In this document: piece after piece, positions 6,447-18,744 of the stretch
How positions within the stretch are numbered: position 1 is the stretch's first letter
How the letters are laid out: each line of letters opens with the position of its first letter
Source: Dehalococcoidia bacterium
Lineage (GTDB): Bacteria; Chloroflexota; Dehalococcoidia; Lucifugimonadales; QGNO01
NCBI GenBank assembly: GCA_965261825.1
Contig: OZ253484.1
Span: 532,695-596,694 of the forward strand
DNA length: 64,000 bases
Direction of reading: 5' to 3'
The notes under the pieces: generated by a model
What the model was told of the DNA's origin: nothing
Databases searched by the model: none
The model's input: only the letters and a program-made list of their open reading frames with translations
Program-made: the position numbers and the translations under genes

Positions 6447-7895
6447 TCATTGCCCTCCTCTTAGCTTTGCCATGATGACACCGTCGCTGAATTTTTCGTG
6501 GAGGTCGGTGTATATGGAGTAAAGCTCATCGTAGCTCTTTGTGGTCGTGGAATTGGGCACGTATTCCTGCTGGCCCACGCCGCCCATGTTATGAGGCGAG
6601 GCTCCCGCCGCCATTGCGGCCAGCATAGCGCTTCCCACCGCCGATGCCTGGCTGGTCCTGGCTATCCGTATTCTCCTTCCCGTCACGTTGGCGAACACCT
6701 GCATGATGAACGGGTTTCGCTCAGGGAGTCCTCCGGAAGCCCTCAGTTCAGCTATGGGAAGTCCGGCCGTTTCATAGGCCTCGATGATCCGCCTTGTCCC
6801 GAAGGCCGCTGATTCGACTAATGCCCGGTAGATCTCCTCCGGCGTGGTGTCCAGGGTGAGTCCCACTAACACACCGCTTAGGTCCGCTCTTTGCAGCTCC
6901 CTGCTGCCGTTCCACCAGTCGAGGGCTACCAGGGAGCCCGGTTCGCCGGAGCCTCTATGGGGAAGGTTGAATTGCTGCGAGAACCAGGCGAACATATCGC
7001 CTACCGCCGCCTGGCCTGATTCGTAGCCAAAGTAACCGGGGAGGATACCGTCTTCCACCGCGCCGCACATACCAAGTACCTGCACCTCTTTCCCGGCCAG
7101 GGTCAAGTGGCAGAGACTGGTGCCCATCACAAGCAGCATTGCCCCCGGTTCTGTGATTCCGGCCGCGGGCACGGCGGCATGGGCGTCCACGGTACCCACC
7201 GCCACCAATGCGTCTCCGTAGTTGCCGGCCCGTCCTGCCGGTGCGCCCACCGGCAGTATGCTTGAGCCGGTCTTCTCCCGTACAAAGCCCGCCATGGACG
7301 GGTGGAGCGATTGGAAGAAGCTATCAGATGGAAACCCGTCTCTCTTGTGCCACATGGCTTTGTACCCGGCGGCGCAGGCGTTCCTGGTCTCCCTGCCGGT
7401 GAGCTGCCAGACAATCCAGTCCGCCTTCTCAATGAACCTACCGGCTTCCCGGTAGAGGGTGGGGGCTTCTTCCAGCGTATGCAAAACCTTGGGGAAGAAC
7501 CACTCGCTGGATATGCGCCCATAGCGGGAAAGCCATGATTCGCCCCGCTGCAACGCCAGCTCATTCAAGCGGTCGGCCTGAGGCTGAGCGTCGTGATTCT
7601 TCCAGATCTTCACCAAGGAGAGAGGATTGTCAGACAGGCGGGAAAGCGGCGTCCCGTCCGCTTTACAAGGCAGGACACTGCAAGCTGTAGCATCTACGCC
7701 TATAGCGTCCGAGGGGCCTAGCTCTCTGAGGACGGAGTCCATGGAATGAAGGTAGTCATCCGGGTCGTGGTACTTGCCATCGATGACGCCGTGTTCGTAC
7801 TCCGAGATGGCGGCGGCTATCTCTTCGCCGCTCTCCACGTCCATGAGGACCCCGCGTACGCTTTCAGTACCAAAGTCAAGGCCGATGGTCTTCAT
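6447..7895 (-). CDS. FGGY-family sugar kinase (ribulokinase-like)
   Basis: IGLDFGTESVR, SSEWFFPK, CAAGYKAMW, VDAHAA, MGTSLCH, ALDWWNG. Confidence 0.88.
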   Translation of the reverse strand: MKTIGLDFGTESVRGVLMDVESGEEIAAAISEYEHGVIDGKYHDPDDYLHSMDSVLRELGPSDAIGVDATACSVLPCKADGTPLSRLSDNPLSLVKIWKNHDAQPQADRLNELALQRGESWLSRYGRISSEWFFPKVLHTLEEAPTLYREAGRFIEKADWIVWQLTGRETRNACAAGYKAMWHKRDGFPSDSFFQSLHPSMAGFVREKTGSSILPVGAPAGRAGNYGDALVAVGTVDAHAAVPAAGITEPGAMLLVMGTSLCHLTLAGKEVQVLGMCGAVEDGILPGYFGYESGQAAVGDMFAWFSQQFNLPHRGSGEPGSLVALDWWNGSRELQRADLSGVLVGLTLDTTPEEIYRALVESAAFGTRRIIEAYETAGLPIAELRASGGLPERNPFIMQVFANVTGRRIRIARTSQASAVGSAMLAAMAAGASPHNMGGVGQQEYVPNSTTTKSYDELYSIYTDLHEKFSDGVIMAKLRGGQ

Positions 7896-7976
7896 AACGG
7901 TAGAAACTTTATCTTCTCCGTGAACGGCGGGCAAGCGGGCAAGTGGCCATGTGGGCAAGCACCGCCTAGAATAGCG

Positions 7977-8010
7977 TTGACAGTGAAAGGATATGTGGTA
8001 AACTTCGCAA
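7977..8010 (+). promoter_or_regulatory. atp operon promoter with overlapping Rex-like operator
   Basis: TTGACA (7977-7982)-16 nt-TAAACT (7999-8004) with extended TG; ATGTGGT-AAAC-TTCGCAA (7993-8010) vs Rex consensus TTGTGAA-N4-TTCACAA. Confidence 0.6.
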
Positions 8011-8027
8011 AGTCTGACGGGGGAGGC

Positions 8028-8258
8028 ATGAATAGGCGTGGGTTTGTCATCGCCATGCGGTTGCTTGGACTTGGTTGGTATGTGGCGATTGCCATCATAC
8101 TTGGCATAGCCGGAGGGATTTGGCTGGACAACAGGATGGGCACCCTTCCGCTATTCACGTTGATAGGTGTCTTGCTGGGTAGCGTGGCTGCATTTTACGG
8201 ACTGTACAGAATGGTTGAGCCTCTATTCAACGAGGATGAGCATACAGACGACCTGTGA
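8028..8258 (+). CDS. AtpZ/AtpI-family (ATPase gene 1) membrane protein
   Basis: GGIWLDNRMGTLPLFTLIGVLLG motif; first gene of the atp operon; GGAGG RBS. Confidence 0.88.
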   Translation: MNRRGFVIAMRLLGLGWYVAIAIILGIAGGIWLDNRMGTLPLFTLIGVLLGSVAAFYGLYRMVEPLFNEDEHTDDL

Positions 8259-8282
8259 TAGGGCGACATTTGTAGCTGATCA

Positions 8283-9224
8283 ATGGATACTAAGAACCTG
8301 ATAAGAGCCCTTGGCCTAGCCCTTGTAGCCCTCTTTGTTTTTGGATTCATAATAGGAGCCATAGGAACCGCCTTGTTTGGAGGAGAGGACGGAGAACCGT
8401 TCCTTCCCACCCCTGAAGTCCACCTTCCTCCGCAACCCGTATTGGAAGCGGACGCCCATGAAGCGGAGGAGCTTCACCAGTTGCCCAACCGATTCATACT
8501 GACCAACACCATCCTTTCCTCTTTGATAGCAAGCGCCGTGCTGATACTCCTCTTCTACTTTGGAACGCGTAACATAAGCGCGGACAAACCTCCCAGGGGG
8601 CTGCAGAACTTTGTGGAATCCATAATCAGCAGAATGTACGGTTTTGTGGAGAGCGTGGCCGGCCCCCGGTACGCCAGGGCGTTCTTTCCCCTGTTTGCCA
8701 CCATTTTCTTGTTTGTGATAATAAACGCCTGGCTGGGCCTGCTACCGGTCTATCAAAGCTTTGGCTTTGTCGAAGACGGTCACCTGACGCGGCACGCGCT
8801 GCGCCCCGCCGGTACCGATCTGAACATGCCGCTTGCTCTTGCGTTGATCTCCTTTGTGTTTGTAGAGTTCTGGGGGATCAGAGCCCTGGGGCTGTCCTAT
8901 TTCGGGAAGTTCTTCCGGTTTGGGGCCTTGCTCAGAGGCCGTATATTTGAAGGAGTCATAGACGTATTCGTCGGCTTGCTGGAGGCGTTGAGCGAATTCA
9001 TACGCATTGTGAGCTTTACGTTCAGGTTGTTTGGGAATATGACCGCCGGTGAGATATTGCTGCTGGTTACGGCCTTCCTAATACCGTTTGCGTTCTCGCT
9101 GCCTTTCTATGGATTGGAGTTGCTGGTTGGGTTCATCCAGGCGTTGATATTCGCCGGTCTCACGTTGGTATTCGTAACCACGGCGGTTACGCCTCATGAA
9201 CATGGAGCGGAGGAAGGCCACTAG
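8283..9224 (+). CDS. atpB: F0F1 ATP synthase subunit a
   Basis: PRGLQNFVE, NAWLGLLP, SFTFRLFGNMTAGE (essential Arg), LELLVGFIQALIF. Confidence 0.96.
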   Translation: MDTKNLIRALGLALVALFVFGFIIGAIGTALFGGEDGEPFLPTPEVHLPPQPVLEADAHEAEELHQLPNRFILTNTILSSLIASAVLILLFYFGTRNISADKPPRGLQNFVESIISRMYGFVESVAGPRYARAFFPLFATIFLFVIINAWLGLLPVYQSFGFVEDGHLTRHALRPAGTDLNMPLALALISFVFVEFWGIRALGLSYFGKFFRFGALLRGRIFEGVIDVFVGLLEALSEFIRIVSFTFRLFGNMTAGEILLLVTAFLIPFAFSLPFYGLELLVGFIQALIFAGLTLVFVTTAVTPHEHGAEEGH

Positions 9225-9245
9225 CCTTCCAGCCTGAGGAGCTGA

Positions 9246-9614
<369 letters not shown>

Positions 9615-9655
9615 ACTTGTAAGGTCGGCAGACCTAGCACAAACGGGAGAGGGGT

Positions 9656-10162
9656 ATGGCAGAACTAGGCTTCCATATACCCAGCTTGGTGGTTTACTTG
9701 GTCAATTTTACCATCCTGCTGGTCATATTGTACTTGGTGGGTTACAAGCGCATCTTGCGTGTTCTTGATGAACGCTCAAAACGCATCAAAGAGAGCATGG
9801 AGCAGGCCCAGCATCTGCAGGAGGAGTCTGCTCAGCGCCAGAAAGAGATGGAGGAGCAGATCAGAGAGGCGCGCCGTGAGGGTCAAGGCTTGATTGAACA
9901 GGCCAGGCAGTCGGCTCAGAGGTTCCGTGATGAAGAGCGAGGGAAGACGCGTCTGGAAGCGGATGCTTTTCTTTCCAATGCCCGCTCCGAAATACAAAGA
10001 GAGCGTGATGCAGCGATAGAGGAGGTGCGGCACCAGTTCGCCGACCTGGCAATACTGGCTGCTGAACGCGTGGTGCGCCGCTCGCTGGACAAAGAGGCTC
10101 ACAAAGAGCTCATAGAGCAGACTTTGTCGGAAAGCGATCTGTTCCAGAGGAACGAAGGCTGA
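9656..10162 (+). CDS. atpF: F0F1 ATP synthase subunit b
   Basis: N-terminal TM (VNFTILLVIL), LDERSKRI coiled coil, operon position. Confidence 0.95.
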   Translation: MAELGFHIPSLVVYLVNFTILLVILYLVGYKRILRVLDERSKRIKESMEQAQHLQEESAQRQKEMEEQIREARREGQGLIEQARQSAQRFRDEERGKTRLEADAFLSNARSEIQRERDAAIEEVRHQFADLAILAAERVVRRSLDKEAHKELIEQTLSESDLFQRNEG

Positions 10163-10701
10163 TGGCTCGAAGGCCCGTAGCCAAGCGCTACGCCCAAGCG
10201 GCATTTGCTATTGCACAGGAGCAAGGCCGCTTGGAAGAGTGGCTTGCCGAATTGCAAACAGCGGTCTACGCCCTAAGCGATGGCGAGACGATGGCCTTCC
10301 TTCAACTGCCCAAAGTGAGCTTGGACCGCAAGCTTCAACTGCTGCGAGACGTTCTCAAGGACCTGAGCCCAGCGGTCCTCAACTTGTTGGGTCTGCTCAC
10401 TTCAAAGGGCGGCCTGCCGGTGCTGCCCGGTGTGCTCAGTGAATATCAACGGCTGCTGGACGAGAGCCAGGGCAGAGAGCGCGCTAAGGTTACGGCTGCC
10501 CTTGATTTGGATGAGGCGCAGAGGGAGAAGCTTGGCCAGCTGTTGAGCACGCTGTTGGACAAGGAAGTGGTACTCACCACCAGGACGGATGAAGAAGTCC
10601 TTGGGGGAGTGCTTGTTAGAATTGGAGATAGGATCATCGACGGGAGCGCACGCGGAAGACTGCGATCGTTGCGGCAAAGCGTGCTGGCTACCCCAAGTTA
10701 G
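10162..10701 (+). CDS. atpH: F0F1 ATP synthase subunit delta
   Basis: VAKRYAQAAF, LGGVLVRIGDRIIDGS. Confidence 0.95.
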   Translation: MARRPVAKRYAQAAFAIAQEQGRLEEWLAELQTAVYALSDGETMAFLQLPKVSLDRKLQLLRDVLKDLSPAVLNLLGLLTSKGGLPVLPGVLSEYQRLLDESQGRERAKVTAALDLDEAQREKLGQLLSTLLDKEVVLTTRTDEEVLGGVLVRIGDRIIDGSARGRLRSLRQSVLATPS

Positions 10702-10719
10702 AACGGGAGAGATGGAGCT

Positions 10720-12234
10720 ATGACCACACGAGGCCAGGACCTGGCTGCTGTAATAAAGCGTCAAATTGAAGAGTTTGGCGGCGATTTGACCATGGTGGAC
10801 GTAGGCACAGTCACCGAGGTGGGCGACGGCATAGCCAGGATTCACGGCCTTGGAGGAGTGCAGTACACGGAGCTGCTGGCTTTTCCAGGAGACGTCATTG
10901 GCATGGCCATGAACCTGGAAGAGGATGCCGTGGGCGCCGCGATCATGGGTGACGACTCCGGAATAAAAGAGGGTGATGAGGTGCGCTCCACGGGCCGCGT
11001 TGCCGAGGTCCCGGTAGGAAACGATCTCATTGGCCGTACAGTCGACGCATTGGGCAGGCCTATAGACGGCAAAGGCCCTCTGAGAACGGAGAACACGCGT
11101 CCCATAGAGCGCGTTGCCCCCAACGTGGTGACTCGCCAGGCAGTGAACGTGCCGGTGCAAACGGGCATCAAAGCCATCGACAGCATGATCCCAATAGGCC
11201 GGGGCCAGAGAGAGTTGATCATTGGAGACCGCTCAACGGGTAAGAGCGCCATAGCCCTTGATGCCATCATCAACCAGAAGGGCGGCGATTTGATCTGCAT
11301 CTACGTGGCAATAGGGCAACGAGTGGGTAAAGTAGCCCAGACCGTCGCTATCTTGGAGCAGAACGGGGCCATGGAGCACACCGTAGTTGTGGCCGCCAAC
11401 GCCTCTGACCCGGCGCCTCTACAGTACCTTGCTCCGTATGCAGGCTGCGCCATAGGCGAAGAGTTCATGGAGCAGGGCAGGGACGCGCTGATCATCTACG
11501 ACGATTTGTCCAAACATGCATGGGCATACCGCCAGCTTTCGTTGCTGCTGCGCAGGCCTCCCGGACGGGAAGCCTATCCCGGAGACGTTTTCTATCTGCA
11601 CAGCAGGCTCTTGGAAAGGGCGGCGCGGCTATCCAATGAGCACGGGGGCGGTTCACTCACCGCTTTGCCCATCATAGAAACCCAGGCCGGGGATGTATCG
11701 GCTTACATCCCAACCAACGTCATCTCTATCACCGACGGCCAGATCTACCTGGAGGCGGACCTGTTCAATGCCGGTATAAGACCCGCGGTAAACGCCGGAC
11801 TTTCCGTGTCCCGCGTAGGCGGGTCGGCGCAGAGGCGCGCCATGAGGAGCGTGGCGGGCAGATTGCGTCTGGATTTGGCGCAGTACAGGGAACTGGTGAC
11901 GTTTGCCCAGTTTGGCACCTCCGACCTGGATCGGGCCACGCGAGAGCAGTTGGAGCGCGGCCAGCGCATCACGGAGGTGTTGAAACAGTCGCAGTACCAG
12001 CCCTTGTCACTGGAAATGCAGGTTTCCATCATGTTTGCCGTTACCAACGGCTACCTGGATGACGTTCCCGTTTCCAGGGTGCGTGAGTGGGAAAGCGGCT
12101 TCCACCAGTACCTGGCCGCCAATCAGCCCCAGATATTGGAAAGCATTGCCACCACGTACGAAATAAACGAGGACAATCAGAAAGCGCTTAGGGACGCTAT
12201 AGAGGCGTACAAGCAGACCGTCACCTTGGAGTAG
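10720..12234 (+). CDS. atpA: F0F1 ATP synthase subunit alpha
   Basis: [41 protein letters not shown]. Confidence 0.98.
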
Positions 12235-12241
12235 AGGACAA

Positions 12242-12469
12242 ATGGGATTAGCAGAACAGGCTCTAAGGCACTTCAAGAACAAGCCTATAGTGATTGTTAC
12301 CACTGTAGAGAGTGAGGGTTCCTTGCAGGAAGTGGCCGGCGTCCTGGAAGACGGCGCCGACGATTATCTATTGGTGCGTGACCAGGACAACGGCATGCCT
12401 ACAGTTGTCAACGTCTCCCGCGTAGCGTGGATATATGAAGAGACCCAAGAGGAAGAGGAAGCAGAGTAG
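12242..12469 (+). CDS. 75-aa hypothetical protein, predicted Sm/LSm(Hfq)-like fold with acidic tail
   Basis: AGAGGA RBS, packed between atpA and atpG; helix-5 strand pattern LRHFKNKPIVIVT..EVAGVLED..DYLLVRD..PTVVNVSRVAWIYE; fold is inference. Confidence 0.75.
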   Translation: MGLAEQALRHFKNKPIVIVTTVESEGSLQEVAGVLEDGADDYLLVRDQDNGMPTVVNVSRVAWIYEETQEEEEAE

Positions 12470-12474
12470 TAGAG

Positions 12475-13344
12475 ATGGCAGTAGTCTCTAACGTAAGGAC
12501 AATAAGACGCCGCATCAGAAGCGTGCAGAACACGGCCAAGATCACCAAGGCCATGCAGATGATTGCGGCATCCAAGATGAGGCGTGCTCAGCAGCTTTCC
12601 ATTGCAGGCAGACCGTATTCCGAAAAGATGCGGACTGTGCTGGCGGACCTTGCCTCGCAGGCCGGAGAGGACGAACAGAGCCATCCACTGCTGCAAAAGC
12701 GTGACGTGCAGCGCATTCAGATAGTGCATATAACTCCCGATAGAGGGCTCTGTGGAGGCTTGCCCTCCAACTTGAACCGGGCTGCAGGTCTGTTCATCTT
12801 GCAGAAGGAGTTGCCCGTAAGCATACTCAGCGTGGGTAGAAAGGGACGCGATTTCATGGCGAGAACGGGGCGCGACTTGCGCGCCGTATTCACCGATCTA
12901 GGAGACCGCCCCACTCTGGAAGACACGCTGCCCATAGCCCGCCTGGCCATAGAGGACTACGTCAGCGGCCTTGCCGACGAGGTATACCTTGCATACAGCG
13001 TATTCGTCAGCACCGCTACACAGCGCCCTACAATGCAGAGGCTGCTTCCAGTGGAACCGGCGGAGTTGGAGCCCGGGCAGGCGGTGGGCTACATCTACGA
13101 ACCGCACAGCCTGCAGGTCTTAGGAGAGCTTCTTCCCAGGTTTGTGGAGATGCAGATATATCACGCGATGTTGGAGTCGGTGGCCAGCGAGCATTCGGCG
13201 CGTATGGTGGCGATGCAGAACGCCACCGACGCCGCCAACGATATGGTAGATGGCCTTACACTGCTGCTCAACAAGGTGCGTCAGGAATCCATAACCAAGG
13301 AGCTCCTGGACATTGTGGGCGGCGTTGCCGCGCTGGAAGCGTAG
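12475..13344 (+). CDS. atpG: F0F1 ATP synthase subunit gamma
   Basis: KITKAMQMIAASK, DRGLCGG, SEHSARMVAMQNATD, RQESITKEL. Confidence 0.98.
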   Translation: MAVVSNVRTIRRRIRSVQNTAKITKAMQMIAASKMRRAQQLSIAGRPYSEKMRTVLADLASQAGEDEQSHPLLQKRDVQRIQIVHITPDRGLCGGLPSNLNRAAGLFILQKELPVSILSVGRKGRDFMARTGRDLRAVFTDLGDRPTLEDTLPIARLAIEDYVSGLADEVYLAYSVFVSTATQRPTMQRLLPVEPAELEPGQAVGYIYEPHSLQVLGELLPRFVEMQIYHAMLESVASEHSARMVAMQNATDAANDMVDGLTLLLNKVRQESITKELLDIVGGVAALEA

Positions 13345-13371
13345 AGCGGTTACTTTTACAAAACGGAGTGA

Positions 13372-14787
<1,416 letters not shown>

Positions 14788-14792
14788 CGGAC

Positions 14793-15203
14793 ATGGCGCC
14801 AATGCTGCTAGAGATAGTGACGGCGGAGCGCCTGGTCTACTCCGACGAGGTCGATATAGTTGTCGCTCCAGGCATGGAGGGGGAGCTGGGCATCCTGCCG
14901 CACCATGCGCCGTTGTTGACAATCCTCCAACCTGGAGAGTTGCGAATTCACAGGACGGGACAGGAAGACGTGTACATGGCGGTCACCGGCGGCTTTCTAG
15001 AAGTGACGGGCAACCGGGTTATCGTGCTGGCCGATGCCGCGGAGCGTTCCGAAGAGATTGACGAGGCGCGGGCGCAGGAAGCGTTGCGCAAAGCCGAGGA
15101 GAGGGTGGAGAGAAGGGAAGAGGGCGCGGACCTCCAGCGGGCGCTGGCTTCGATCAGGCGATCAAGGTTGAGGCTGGACGTAAAACGTCGTCGCCGCCGT
15201 TAA
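14793..15203 (+). CDS. atpC: F0F1 ATP synthase subunit epsilon
   Basis: EIVTAER, GELGILPHHAPL, VTGGFLEV. Confidence 0.96.
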   Translation: MAPMLLEIVTAERLVYSDEVDIVVAPGMEGELGILPHHAPLLTILQPGELRIHRTGQEDVYMAVTGGFLEVTGNRVIVLADAAERSEEIDEARAQEALRKAEERVERREEGADLQRALASIRRSRLRLDVKRRRRR

Positions 15204-15215
15204 CTGCCCTCTTGA

Positions 15216-15869
15216 TCAGACGTTTGCCACGTAATACGTCATCGACTGTAGTGCAAGCACCGGGTCTATGTTGCGCGCCTTGACCTCAGGCGGGACCTGG
15301 ATTCCCACCGGTGCGTAGTTCACTATAGCTTTAACTCCGCACTTCACCAGTTCGTCTACTACAGACTGAGCGTCATCGGCTGGTACGGCCGTGATGCAGA
15401 TTTGAATGCCTTCAGCACTGATCACTTCGGCCAGCCTGTGCATGGGCTGGACCATTATGCCGCCCACCATCTGTCCAATCTGGCGTGAGTCGGCATCAAA
15501 TGCGGCAACAATGTTGAACCCCTCTGGCGCAAAGCCTGGATAGCTTAGAATAGCGCGCCCCAAGCGGCCTATGCCGACCAGGCCTACCTTCCACTCAATA
15601 TCCAAGCCCAGGATGCTTCGCAGCTCTGCAATTAGATTGGAGATGTTATATCCGCGGCCCTGCTTGCCAAACCTACCAAAGTAGCTGAGGTCCTTGCGGA
15701 TCTGGGCGGGGGTCATTTGTATTAGCTCGCCCAGCTGCTGGGAGCTGGCTACCTTGATCCCCTGGTTGCTCAGGCGCGCCAGTATCCGCAAGTACTGCGG
15801 CAGGCGCATTATCACCACCTCAGGGACTTCTGCGGATGAGCTTCCCATAGTAGCTGCGTTGGTGGTCAT
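15216..15869 (-). CDS. rex: Redox-sensing transcriptional repressor Rex
   Basis: RLPQYLR, AQIRKDLSYFGRFGKQGRGY, LVGIGRLGRA; start codon uncertain (15869 or 15848). Confidence 0.95.
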   Translation of the reverse strand: MTTNAATMGSSSAEVPEVVIMRLPQYLRILARLSNQGIKVASSQQLGELIQMTPAQIRKDLSYFGRFGKQGRGYNISNLIAELRSILGLDIEWKVGLVGIGRLGRAILSYPGFAPEGFNIVAAFDADSRQIGQMVGGIMVQPMHRLAEVISAEGIQICITAVPADDAQSVVDELVKCGVKAIVNYAPVGIQVPPEVKARNIDPVLALQSMTYYVANV

Positions 15870-15954
15870 GTTGAACCACCCTTGGCCAGGGACCTTTGAC
15901 AAAAACGCACTTATTCAACCAGCTTTTTCACGATTTCTGTCCTAAGGGAAGTTG

Positions 15955-15983
15955 ATTGTAGTAGCTTTCACAAACACCGTCAA
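15955..15983 (-). promoter_or_regulatory. rex promoter with embedded Rex operator (autoregulation)
   Basis: Minus strand TTGACG-17 nt-TACAAT; TTGTGAA-AGCT-ACTACAA (15956-15973) spans the spacer and -10. Confidence 0.8.
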
Positions 15984-16042
15984 GAAAGTGTGCGTGTTCT
16001 TCCCTTCTATGCCAACTTTCCTTCCTGTCTCCCATCCGCCGA

Positions 16043-16140
16043 GTTCCCTGCCACCTACTGAATGCTCTGTTCCACGCAAATGTGGGGGCGTTCCGCCATC
16101 AACAGCCAAACGCACGTCGTTGGGTTCCCGTGCAGGGAAT
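16043..16140 (+). ncRNA. Candidate ~100-nt rod-like structured RNA (unassigned)
   Basis: Nested stems TTCCCTGC/GCAGGGAA, ACCTACTGA/TCGTTGGGT, CTGTT/AACAG with two apical hairpins. Confidence 0.4.
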
Positions 16141-16167
16141 GCTGTTATACTGGCCTTACCTTCTGAA

Positions 16168-16461
16168 ATGAACGTAGGCACCTGCAAAATACGGCTCCGT
16201 CTGCCTGGAAATGGAACCCTCAAGGGCAAGCGCCAGGCGGCCCGCTCCATCACCAGCCGGATAAGGAATAAATTCAACGTTTCCATTGCTGAGGTGGACG
16301 AGAACGATGCTCACCGGATGCTCGTTTTGGGGGTCTCCTGTGTGAGCAACGACTCGCGCCATGCCAACCAGGTACTGTCGAACGTGGTGGAGTATGTACA
16401 GGATATCCATGGCGATGCCGAGCTCTTGGACTATGAAGTGGACATAATCTCTGGTGTTTAG
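16168..16461 (+). CDS. DUF503 family protein
   Basis: LKGKRQ, RIRNKFNVSIAEV, LGVSCVSND. Confidence 0.92.
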   Translation: MNVGTCKIRLRLPGNGTLKGKRQAARSITSRIRNKFNVSIAEVDENDAHRMLVLGVSCVSNDSRHANQVLSNVVEYVQDIHGDAELLDYEVDIISGV

Positions 16462-16464
16462 CTG

Positions 16465-18744
16465 ATGGACGTACCCGGCTTCCTGGAGGCCGTCAAACGA
16501 GCTTCCGACTACAACGACCAGATTGTCCACGAGGAAGTGGTGCCGGCCAGGACTGCTCGGTACGGATCGCTCTCCCCGCGGCTTGACCCTAGATTGGAGG
16601 CGGCTCTTGCCAGGAGCGGCGTGCCTCAGCTTTATTTGCATCAATCGGAGTCAGTGCAGGCTGCCCGGGCCGGGGAGAACCTGATAGTCGCCACCGGTGC
16701 GGCCAGCGGCAAGAGCCTGTGCTACCAGGTCCCGCTTCTGGAGGCTGCCCTTCGGAAGAAAGCGAGCCGCTCTCTGCTAGTGTTTCCCACCAAGGCGCTG
16801 GCCCAAAACCAGCTCAGGTCGCTCAACGGCCTGTGCAGCGATCTGATTCCGTTCAAGGCGGAGATATTCGATGGGGATACCCCCGGTGACGTCAGGTCTG
16901 GGATCAAGAGGACGGCGCAAGTTGTGATCACCAACCCGGATATGCTGCACCTGGGCATCCTGCCCAATCATGGCACCTGGCAGCGCTTCTTTAGAAACCT
17001 GGACTACGTAGTTCTTGATGAGGCGCACGCCTATGCGGGCGTATTCGGCTCACACATGGCAAACGTGATTCGTAGGCTGAGGCGCTTGGCCGGTTACTAC
17101 GGGAGCAATCCCAGCTTCATCCTGTGTTCCGCTACCATCGCCAATCCCAGAGAGCTGGCCGGAGACTTGCTCGGCGCACCCGTCAAGGTGATTGACCAAG
17201 ATCACTCGCCCCAAGGAGGAAAGCACTTTCTGTTCTGGAACCCGCCTTTCCTAGATGAGTCCAGGGCAAAGCGCAGAAGCGCTATTGCGGAAGCGGCCGT
17301 GGTCTTCAGAGAGCTGCTTCTGCGCGGCGTACGCACCCTGACCTTTACCAGGACCCGCCGCCAGGTGGAGCTGATCTACGTCTCGGTCAGGGACTACTTG
17401 GCCGAGCACGTTCCAAGCCTGGCGTCCAAGGTCAGCCCCTACCGGGCAAGCTATCTTGCGGAAGATAGACGCGCCATTGAACAACGCCTGTTCAACGGCG
17501 AGCTGTTGGGCGTGGCGTCCACCAACGCCCTGGAGCTGGGCATCGACGTAGGGACCTTGGACGCGACCATTCTGGGAGGATATCCTGGAAGCGTCAGCAG
17601 CGCCTGGCAGCAGGCCGGCCGCAGCGGGCGGCGGCAGGAAGGGTCATTGAGCGTACTGGTCGCCCGCCACGACCCGCTCGACCAGTATCTAATGCGCCAT
17701 CCCGATTTCTTCTTTGGCAGATCGCACGAGCACGCACTGATTGCTCCCAACAACCCTCGCATACTGGACCAGCACCTGCTCTGCGCCTCTTACGAGAGGC
17801 CGCTTGGCAGAAGAGACGAAAGATTCTTTGGCCTGGACTTGCAAAGCCGCCTGGCCGCGCTCCAGGCTGAAGGCCTGCTGCACAGGGAGGGCGAACGGTG
17901 GTTCCCCAGCGCCGGCGTGGTCTATCCGGCGGAAGAAGTCAACATCAGATCAAGCTCGCGTGGTTCCTATGCGGTGGTGAGCGGCGAGTCCGGGGCGCTT
18001 CTGGAAATGGTGGACGAAGGGAGTGCATTTTCCCAGCTCCATACGGGCGCCGTATACCTACACTACGGAGAGCAATACCTGGTCGAGCGGTTGGACCTAG
18101 ACTCGAATACGGCTTACGTCACTCCCCGGGAGGTGCAGTATTACACCCGGGCCCACGAACTGACCGATATTCAAATGCGGCACATCCTGGATCAGAGATC
18201 CGTAGGCGGCATAGACGTATACCTGGGCGAAGTGGAGGTGTCCAGCCAGGTGGTGAGCTACCAGAGGAGGGCTCAGTTCAGCGACGAGCCAATAGGAGAC
18301 GAGATACTGGACCTGCCGCCACAGCAGTTCTCCACCGTTGCCCTTTGGTTCAGTCCACGAGAGGAAGACCTGGCCAGGATCAAGGGCCAAAGGCTGGACC
18401 TACCGGGAGGGCTTCACGCCGCCGAGCACGCCGCCATTGGCGTACTGCCGTTGTTCGCCCTCTGCGACCGAAACGACATAGGCGGGGTGTCCACGCCGTT
18501 TCACCCGGACACGGGCAGGCCGCAAATCTTCATCTACGATGGCCACGCGGGAGGCGTTGGCATTGCGGAAAAGGGGTACCAGATTATAGAGGAACTTTGG
18601 CGGGCAACGCTGCAGGTGCTCCAGGAGTGTCCCTGCGAGGATGGCTGTCCCGCCTGCATACAGTCGCCCAAGTGCGGCAACAACAACCACCCGTTGGATA
18701 AAGGAGTGGCGGCCATGCTGCTGCGAGGCGCTTTGGGCTTGTGA
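16465..18744 (+). CDS. MrfA/YprA/Hrq1-type DEAH helicase with C-terminal DUF1998 (4-Cys)
   Basis: TGAASGKSL, PTKALAQ, LDEAH, TNALELGIDVG, QAGRSGR, CPCEDGCPACIQSPKCGN. Confidence 0.93.
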   Translation: MDVPGFLEAVKRASDYNDQIVHEEVVPARTARYGSLSPRLDPRLEAALARSGVPQLYLHQSESVQAARAGENLIVATGAASGKSLCYQVPLLEAALRKKASRSLLVFPTKALAQNQLRSLNGLCSDLIPFKAEIFDGDTPGDVRSGIKRTAQVVITNPDMLHLGILPNHGTWQRFFRNLDYVVLDEAHAYAGVFGSHMANVIRRLRRLAGYYGSNPSFILCSATIANPRELAGDLLGAPVKVIDQDHSPQGGKHFLFWNPPFLDESRAKRRSAIAEAAVVFRELLLRGVRTLTFTRTRRQVELIYVSVRDYLAEHVPSLASKVSPYRASYLAEDRRAIEQRLFNGELLGVASTNALELGIDVGTLDATILGGYPGSVSSAWQQAGRSGRRQEGSLSVLVARHDPLDQYLMRHPDFFFGRSHEHALIAPNNPRILDQHLLCASYERPLGRRDERFFGLDLQSRLAALQAEGLLHREGERWFPSAGVVYPAEEVNIRSSSRGSYAVVSGESGALLEMVDEGSAFSQLHTGAVYLHYGEQYLVERLDLDSNTAYVTPREVQYYTRAHELTDIQMRHILDQRSVGGIDVYLGEVEVSSQVVSYQRRAQFSDEPIGDEILDLPPQQFSTVALWFSPREEDLARIKGQRLDLPGGLHAAEHAAIGVLPLFALCDRNDIGGVSTPFHPDTGRPQIFIYDGHAGGVGIAEKGYQIIEELWRATLQVLQECPCEDGCPACIQSPKCGNNNHPLDKGVAAMLLRGALGL

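Follow-up and report, generated by a model that had tools for sequence, protein, structure and literature searches.

A small acidic protein with a predicted Sm-like fold, encoded between atpA and atpG in one clade of Dehalococcoidia

The F1Fo ATP synthase of bacteria is usually seen as a fixed eight-subunit machine for which very few helpers are known, and its F1 genes form a tight block in which insertions are unusual. What, then, is a gene for a 75-residue acidic protein doing between the genes for the alpha and gamma subunits? The gene in question lies in a 64,000-nucleotide stretch of DNA from a Dehalococcoidia bacterium of the Chloroflexota (assembly GCA_965261825.1, contig OZ253484.1, positions 532,695 to 596,694), which we call the window. 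We refer to this open reading frame as ORF75. It opens with ATG and runs for 75 codons on the plus strand (12242..12469, stop codon included). Its upstream neighbour is atpA, for F1 alpha (10720..12234, +; Pfam PF00006, PF00306 and PF02874), whose stop codon ORF75 follows at a distance of 7 nucleotides (nt). Its downstream neighbour is atpG, for F1 gamma (12475..13344, +; PF00231, E 3e-92), which starts 5 nt after ORF75 ends. A Shine-Dalgarno (SD)-like site, GAGGA (12234..12238, +), overlaps the atpA stop codon and sits 3 nt from the ATG; its duplex with a generic anti-SD sequence, at -6.0 kcal/mol, falls among the values of the other atp genes and is a consensus match only. An earlier reading of the bare letters, which we call the sequence-only reading, had noted the length of the protein, the ribosome-binding site, both gaps and the peptides EVAGVLE and EETQEEEEAE. 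All of these statements hold. The interpretation it built on them, a ring-forming Sm/Hfq-like factor for F1 or for atp mRNA, was borne out only in part, and it is that interpretation which occupies most of what follows.

ORF75 is a genuine gene and not a chance reading frame. Among 11 close nucleotide copies (Nei-Gojobori method, 68 codons), the ratio of nonsynonymous to synonymous substitution (dN/dS, or omega) has a median of 0.17 and a range of 0.02-0.46, taken over the 54 of 55 pairs in which dS exceeded 0.05. More distant relatives, at 39-56% identity, retain length, pattern and motifs. It is this pairing of purifying selection with the retention of length and pattern that persuades us. 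The position of the gene suggests something further. Both in the window and across its close clade, 2-6 nt separate the ORF75 stop codon from the atpG start, and the sequence ahead of atpG that best matches the anti-SD is a GAGGAA embedded in the tail codons of ORF75, at a poor 14-nt spacing. Going by this arrangement, ORF75 and gamma are probably translated in a coupled fashion in the close clade. One could push the thought to its limit and suppose that translation is all that matters, the reading frame serving to bring ribosomes to atpG while its peptide has no function. The short gap and the weak, badly spaced atpG site would suit such an arrangement, yet the amino acids of ORF75 are constrained, its fold is confidently predicted, distant members keep the protein even where the downstream spacer has grown to as much as 167 nt, and a fused copy away from atpG (to which we return) keeps the domain. 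We regard the idea of a functionless spacer peptide as scarcely credible.

To what family, then, does the protein belong? By the sequence searches we made, ORF75 founds an unannotated family that is limited, as far as sampled, to one clade of Dehalococcoidia (Chloroflexota). A word-indexed search yielded 18 proteins from 22 candidates, 17 of them full-length and 81-95% identical to ORF75, and a HMMER scan of 1.84 billion cluster representatives gave 6 matches at E <= 0.001, 5 of which are small proteins at 40-47% identity. A 1400-residue match from that scan (P0024, E 9e-4 over a 34-residue stretch) is an fn3/Big_13 repeat protein and was treated as spurious. Searching with a 20-member profile enlarged the family to 92 clusters; below about E 1e-22 the list holds just shorter proteins of 48-63 residues, apparently fragments. 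None of the 92 clusters carries a precomputed Pfam domain. All 11 that are named by their source are called 'hypothetical protein', and the organism names, 8 in number, are without exception those of Dehalococcoidia or Chloroflexi/Chloroflexota. Other collections were no more forthcoming. The Protein Data Bank (PDB) returned no sequence match to ORF75 at E <= 10; with the family profile it returned five, the best at E 0.034, all short stretches of unrelated enzymes, which we set aside. We likewise set aside the response-regulator receiver models that NCBIfam offered at E 0.027-0.1, which is chance level and far below its cut-offs, and PHROGs gave just matches at E 0.03-0.1 to families of unknown function. 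Searches of open-access full texts turned up no paper on a gene between atpA and atpG or on an extra protein of Dehalococcoidia atp operons, and the accessible part of a preprint on the evolution of rotary ATPases mentions nothing resembling the gene. What is new here is an atp operon with a putative Sm-like accessory gene of an unannotated family; the fold class is already known.

How faithful is the gene to its place? A genome scan seeded with two peptide patterns of the family, which for that reason cannot show relatives lacking the gene, matched 95 stretches, and 17 of these encode a relative of ORF75. All 17 belong to metagenome-assembled genomes of Dehalococcoidia or Chloroflexota. With the atp proteins of the window as tblastn queries, 16 of the 17 loci show atpA, the homologue and atpG in direct succession; every one of the 16 free-standing copies in this family-seeded scan occupies the same slot, and none stands free elsewhere. 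The sequence-only reading had proposed a synteny survey, and the location it comes upon is fixed, not sporadic. Across the ORF75-bearing operons, identity of alpha to that of the window is about 79-98%, while ORF75 itself drops to 42-54%. The spacers around the gene measure anything from 3 to 118 nt on the atpA side and from 2 to 167 nt on the atpG side, so the slot has been kept through local change. Where alpha and gamma have diverged more between two operons, ORF75 tends to have done so as well (Spearman 0.71; 105 pairs, 15 operons), a pattern that suits one ancient insertion passed down with the rest of the operon. At third codon positions the GC content of ORF75 is 0.59, against 0.70-0.74 in atpA, atpG, atpD and atpC; since other genes of the operon are lower too (atpE 0.48, atpF 0.64, atpB 0.65, atpH 0.65), we see in this no clear sign of foreign origin. 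Within its Dehalococcoidia clade, ORF75 has a fixed place among the F1 genes of the atp operon.

The seventeenth locus, which we label L005, tells a different story. There a copy of ORF75 has been fused to a predicted membrane protein, on the same chromosome that carries a normal operon copy (L008). The copied segment is 253 bp long, with 87% DNA identity; it takes in 26 nt from the end of atpA, then the ribosome-binding site, then ORF75 up to but not including its stop codon. In-frame joining makes a protein of 824 residues (L005 5975-8475, +), in which the ORF75 domain is followed by a stretch of about 65 residues rich in Glu, Arg and Gln (a long charged helix), one hydrophobic segment, a Pro/Thr-rich linker and a large domain with an HEVAH motif. 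Pfam gives the fusion a sub-threshold match to Peptidase_M1 and nothing besides. As the fusion shows, the ORF75 domain can do its work at the N-terminus of a different protein, presumably in the cytoplasm. The copied domain still evolves under constraint, with omega of 0.10-0.21 against every other copy, and a nucleotide tree of weak support places it inside the close clade and does not make it the sister of L008, its genome-mate. The fusion is the sole longer relative found in a set of 5.8 billion proteins, where finding few is weak evidence. A constrained copy outside the operon fits a generic oligomerisation or binding module.

It is here that the main rival to an F1-related role has to be faced. 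ORF75 might be a passenger, a Sm-like protein whose role as an oligomeric scaffold or binding module has nothing to do with ATP synthase, inserted once in an ancestor and kept where it is for good expression and for want of any event that took it out. The family is narrow and its divergence follows that of the operon, as vertical inheritance predicts; the second copy does its work elsewhere, attached to the HEVAH membrane protein and under purifying selection; and the nearest structural relatives, GerQ, MnxE/F and Hfq, are unconnected with ATP synthase. A mere passenger sits uneasily, however, with 16 of 16 free-standing copies in one slot despite turnover of the spacers, with the abutment of ORF75 on atpG within a few nucleotides in the close clade, and with the rarity of insertions into this block of genes. 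On balance we place the passenger gene on the unlikely side, as an explanation that nonetheless deserves to be kept in view.

What does the protein look like? The AlphaFold2 model, built on a 10-sequence alignment, has a predicted local distance difference test score (pLDDT) of 83.8 and a predicted template-modelling score (pTM) of 0.69. It begins with a helix at residues 3-11 (codons 12248..12274, +), continues with strands at 15-22, 27-39, 42-46, 53-57 and 61-66, which form a five-stranded barrel core (residues 15-66, codons 12284..12439, +), and ends in the acidic tail EETQEEEEAE (12437..12466, +), the codons of which hold the GAGGAA mentioned above. Residues 72-75 score below 50 in pLDDT, so the tail is probably disordered. 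Gly33, in strand 2, is invariant in all 26 aligned members of the family. The model supports assignment to the Sm-like fold class, an N-terminal helix followed by five bent antiparallel strands, and thereby agrees with the sequence-only reading, which had guessed the helix, the five strands and the glycine in the second of them from the letters. A Foldseek search, which that reading had also suggested, returned GerQ, MnxE/F, Hfq and Sm/LSm proteins of archaea and eukaryotes. The top PDB match was GerQ (8zra_A: E 4.6e-4, template-modelling (TM) score 0.73, root-mean-square deviation (rmsd) 2.1 Å, 23% identity over 66 columns), the only one below E 0.001 among the matches listed. After it came MnxE/F (9bxa), Hfq of several species (3hfo, 6gwk, 1kq2, 3qsu, 4y91), archaeal Sm proteins (SmAP: 1jri, 1th7, 1loj, 1jbm) and many small nuclear ribonucleoprotein (snRNP) chains, with E of 0.009-0.07 and TM of 0.52-0.66 for the Hfq and SmAP entries. 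Among the best 40 rows, 13 are named as Hfq or archaeal Sm (TM 0.52-0.66), and 14 more, snRNP or spliceosome chains of 60-90 residues, appear to be Sm/LSm as well.

Sequence families point, faintly, the same way. The sole sub-threshold Pfam match of the ORF75 of the window is Spore_GerQ (PF09671), at E 0.031 and 14.7 bits, under the Pfam cut-off of 25 bits. At E <= 1, matches among the 26 members were to Phage_Gene47 (9 members), Spore_GerQ (5), DUF6897 (2), DUF150_C (2) and DUF2642 (2); the best E values were 0.0031 for Spore_GerQ, 0.0089 for DUF6897 and 0.052 for DUF2642, all below threshold. We considered Phage_Gene47 as the family and rejected it, its best match of E 6.9e-4 being below threshold and the family uncharacterised, so that it serves as a small-barrel lead only. 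DUF2642 and DUF6897, which we take to be members of the Sm-like clan, resemble ORF75 in size (60-75 residues) and in these weak Pfam matches, and their clusters are its neighbours in the language-model space of the ESM Atlas, with scores of 0.90-0.93; they differ in that the matches are sub-threshold and the families have no known function or linkage to atp genes. DUF2642-like relatives had been predicted in the sequence-only reading, and Spore_GerQ, DUF2642, DUF6897 and DUF150_C are such leads, if weak ones. The viral fold library BFVD held uncharacterised small barrels and two rows named 'RNA binding protein', and nothing else.

Conservation is not spread evenly over the barrel. Mean column entropy is 0.63 bits in strand 4 (PTVVN) and 0.58 bits in strand 5 (VAWIYE), compared with 1.1-1.3 in the other strands, a pattern resembling what a conserved subunit interface would produce. 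In rings of the Sm type, neighbouring subunits are joined by strand 4 of one pairing with strand 5 of the other. By analogy with its nearest structural relatives, ORF75 probably self-assembles through strands 4 and 5. The closest of these relatives is the core of the spore-coat protein GerQ, also called YwdL (PDB 8ZRA), which shares the combination of helices and five strands. According to the accessible text of its structural description, GerQ cores form nine-subunit rings by beta-sheet completion between neighbours, and the protein is believed to bring in CwlJ, an enzyme (PMC11405398). GerQ has a long N-terminal region, its ordered core being residues 91-169 (same source), whereas ORF75 has just 75 residues in all, carries a poly-glutamate tail and lies in a Dehalococcoidia atp operon with no link to sporulation. 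The second-best matches were MnxE and MnxF (9bxa_E at E 0.008, 9bxa_B at E 0.019). The part of the literature open to us describes these as small, operon-encoded proteins that form a hexamer (MnxE3F3) bound to the manganese oxidase MnxG and required for its activity (PMC5622069). They differ from ORF75 in serving another enzyme and in binding copper, and the superposition is loose, at 8-14% identity and an rmsd of 4.5-6.4 Å.

If the fold is Sm-like, is the protein a cousin of Hfq, and does it act on RNA? The whole family is strongly acidic. All 26 aligned members share this character, with a median isoelectric point of 4.05 and net charges from -7 to -21, the barrel core contributing -4 to -9 and the tail -3 to -14. 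The acidic tail that the sequence-only reading had picked out is conserved across these members, although in two operons (L013 and L016) it is cut to 5 residues, with a net charge of -3 or -4. A Hfq-like RNA chaperone would be an attractive occupant of this slot. A Sm ring on atp mRNA might tune processing or translation downstream and so set the ratio of alpha to gamma, and the gene stands exactly where translation must drop, each enzyme having three alpha subunits and a single gamma. The fold is suitable, Hfq is among the structural matches, and enterobacterial Hfq also has an acidic tail. Yet the RNA-binding faces of Hfq are basic, and here the core itself is acidic. The topology is shared in the model, an N-terminal helix and then five bent strands, but the Sm2 motif of Hfq, [YF]KHA[IV], has no counterpart: as the sequence-only reading had remarked, YKHA is absent, and the region reads NVSRVAWIYE. 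No Hfq or LSM Pfam model matched the ORF75 of the window at E <= 10 or any of the 26 members at E <= 1, and an Rfam scan over 7000-16500 found no family. The acidity of core and tail argues against Hfq-type RNA binding and for a protein partner. Thus the Sm-like half of the earlier label stands, on the model and Foldseek, whereas membership of the Hfq family does not; the role in processing atp mRNA proposed in the same breath is disfavoured by the acidic core and tail in 26 of 26 members, the missing motif and the missing family match. Judged on its charge, ORF75 probably binds protein and not RNA, and we think a RNA chaperone at this locus very improbable.

Which protein might it bind? The operon itself supplies basic candidates. 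Gamma has a net charge of +10 over its first 40 residues. Epsilon, encoded by atpC (14793..15203, +), ends in a KRRRRR tail (at about 15183-15200), and the basic tail that the sequence-only reading had proposed as a partner proves general: all 15 ORF75-bearing operons with a captured epsilon gene encode an RRRR-type run, after which there is usually a short Pro-rich end, and R132-R134 are the same in each of the 10 aligned sequences. When epsilon is aligned to solved structures of the subunit, the match ends at or before query residue 133, which makes the arginine run largely an extension past the aligned helical domain. A prediction of the complex of gamma, epsilon and ORF75 scored 0.01 against a mark of 0.32, and speaks neither for nor against binding.

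Such complementarity invites comparison with inhibitors of F1. ORF75 might act like zeta, IF1 or Rof, its barrel docking on F1 while the poly-glutamate tail captures the arginine tail of epsilon, or mimics the acidic DELSEED-type loop of beta, and so sets the epsilon lock on ATP hydrolysis. The charges match on both sides (acidic tail in 26 of 26 members, RRRR in 15 of 15 operons), and epsilon retains its long C-terminal helical domain (PF00401). There are precedents too, as far as the accessible texts go, in the clade-restricted zeta (PMC9317440) and in Rof, also known as YaeO, which is small and Sm-like and has a protein, not RNA, as its target: it binds rho, a hexameric ATPase, and inhibits it (PMC11018626). 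Rof has another target and another genomic context and was absent among the Foldseek matches listed; we claim no homology. Against a tail-driven inhibitor stands the shrinkage of the tail in L013, whose epsilon nevertheless keeps RRRR, and in L016, a locus that ends before epsilon. Zeta itself, in the same partial view of its literature, is exclusive to alphaproteobacteria and is encoded outside atp operons (PMC9317440), unlike ORF75. We judge a stoichiometric inhibitor or regulator of this kind decidedly unlikely.

A wider circle of proteins helps ATP synthase without belonging to its core. AtpI/UncI, AtpZ-like proteins, zeta (DUF1476), IF1, Atp11/Atp12, PAB and BFA1/BFA3 are assemblers or regulators of F1Fo, often restricted to particular lineages, and ORF75 is like them in being non-core and lineage-bound. 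It differs in sequence: at E <= 10, neither Pfam nor NCBIfam gave ORF75 a match to these families, whether AtpI, ATPase_gene1, zeta/DUF1476, Atp11 or Atp12, or to the canonical F1Fo subunits. We know of none among these helpers and inhibitors that is a Sm-like barrel. The example nearest in spirit may be PAB, an assembly factor that interacts with the gamma subunit of chloroplast CF1, in the accessible part of its description (PMC7607909). By every test used here, PAB, zeta, MnxE3F3 and Rof are without homology to ORF75.

Where does this leave the function? The reading we lean towards, at somewhat less than even confidence, is that ORF75 is a putative lineage-specific, self-associating and protein-binding F1 accessory, an assembly chaperone or a regulator; synteny, charge and analogy are its only grounds. 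ORF75 would be made together with the F1 subunits and would self-assemble through strands 4 and 5. Its targets would be basic parts of the rotor, either the N-terminal helix of gamma or the poly-arginine tail of epsilon. As a chaperone, it would shield these basic rotor subunits until their entry into the alpha3beta3 hexamer; alternatively, it would regulate the epsilon-dependent inhibited state by engaging the arginine tail. A bolder form of the proposal, more doubtful and offered tentatively, is that ORF75 is a ninth component of the bacterial F-type ATP synthase, an acidic Sm-like ring or cap that sits on the gamma N-terminal helix or the epsilon tail and chaperones rotor insertion or gates auto-inhibition by epsilon. 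Were this so, it would be the F1 counterpart to the control by Rof of rho, a related hexameric ATPase.

Several observations weigh against an F1 accessory. Synteny kept within one clade could reflect inheritance alone. The fused and still constrained copy in L005 shows that the ORF75 domain can work away from atp genes. Distant operons have ORF75-atpG spacers of 24-167 nt, so translational coupling is not a family-wide property. On the structural side, the alignment behind the model is a shallow one of 10 sequences, the single-sequence model is poor (pLDDT 53.6), and the structural matches beyond GerQ are weak (E 0.008-0.07), with Tudor, SH3 and WYL barrels in the same list.

The rest of the operon can be described briefly. 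The count of 11 genes given in the sequence-only reading is upheld: atpZ-like, atpB, the frame for a 32-residue peptide, atpE, atpF, atpH, atpA, ORF75, atpG, atpD and atpC. The eight core F1Fo subunits and the PF09527 gene are all assigned, by reading frame and Pfam, to members other than ORF75. The Fo and stalk part spans 8028..10701 (+) and consists of the atpZ-like gene (PF09527, probable start 8028, to 8258), atpB (8283-9224), the 32-residue frame (9247-9345), atpE (9381-9614), atpF (9656-10162) and atpH (10162-10701), all on the plus strand. The F1 part is completed by atpD, for beta (13375..14787, +), between atpG and atpC. Scans for promoters and terminators gave counts at the level of shuffled sequence over the operon, and nothing at ORF75.

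Some smaller features deserve a record of their own. As listed, the atpZ-like frame is 170 codons long (7746-8258, +) and runs into an FGGY kinase gene that converges on it (6447-7958, -). PF09527 matches just residues 105-156 of the frame, and an internal ATG at 8028, with GGGGGAGG directly before it, is the more likely start. The hydrophobic 32-residue frame, in the gap between atpB and atpE, has no Pfam family, and its similarity to the c subunit is without significance (E 0.20). Of 8 close atp loci that reach across the region, 7 give a tblastn match to it; the frame looks disrupted in L003, the match in L013 is weak (44% identity), and tblastn found none in L011, L012, L015 or L016. Two distant operons contain gaps of about 640-710 nt elsewhere in the F1 block, one between atpD and atpC (L013 8704-9348) and one between atpG and atpD (L017 2714-3424), from which it may be that this clade has accepted further insertions there. 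Directly downstream of the operon lies a gene for a Rex-type redox repressor (PF06971 and PF02629; 15216-15902, -), followed by one for a MrfA-like DEAD-box helicase with a zinc-binding domain (16465-18744, +). These neighbours of atpC are kept, Rex in 13 and the helicase in 10 of the 14 loci that extend past atpC.

What the gene means depends on which account of it is right. If ORF75 is a passenger, the finding is merely that of a new small family with a Sm-like fold. If it is an F1 accessory, the roles of Sm-like barrels would extend past RNA biology into the company of GerQ, MnxE/F and Rof. Its carriers are uncultured Dehalococcoidia, about whose energy metabolism little has been learnt, and an extra conserved gene wedged between those for alpha and gamma provides, in the ATP synthase of these organisms, a testable candidate for an assembly factor or regulator.

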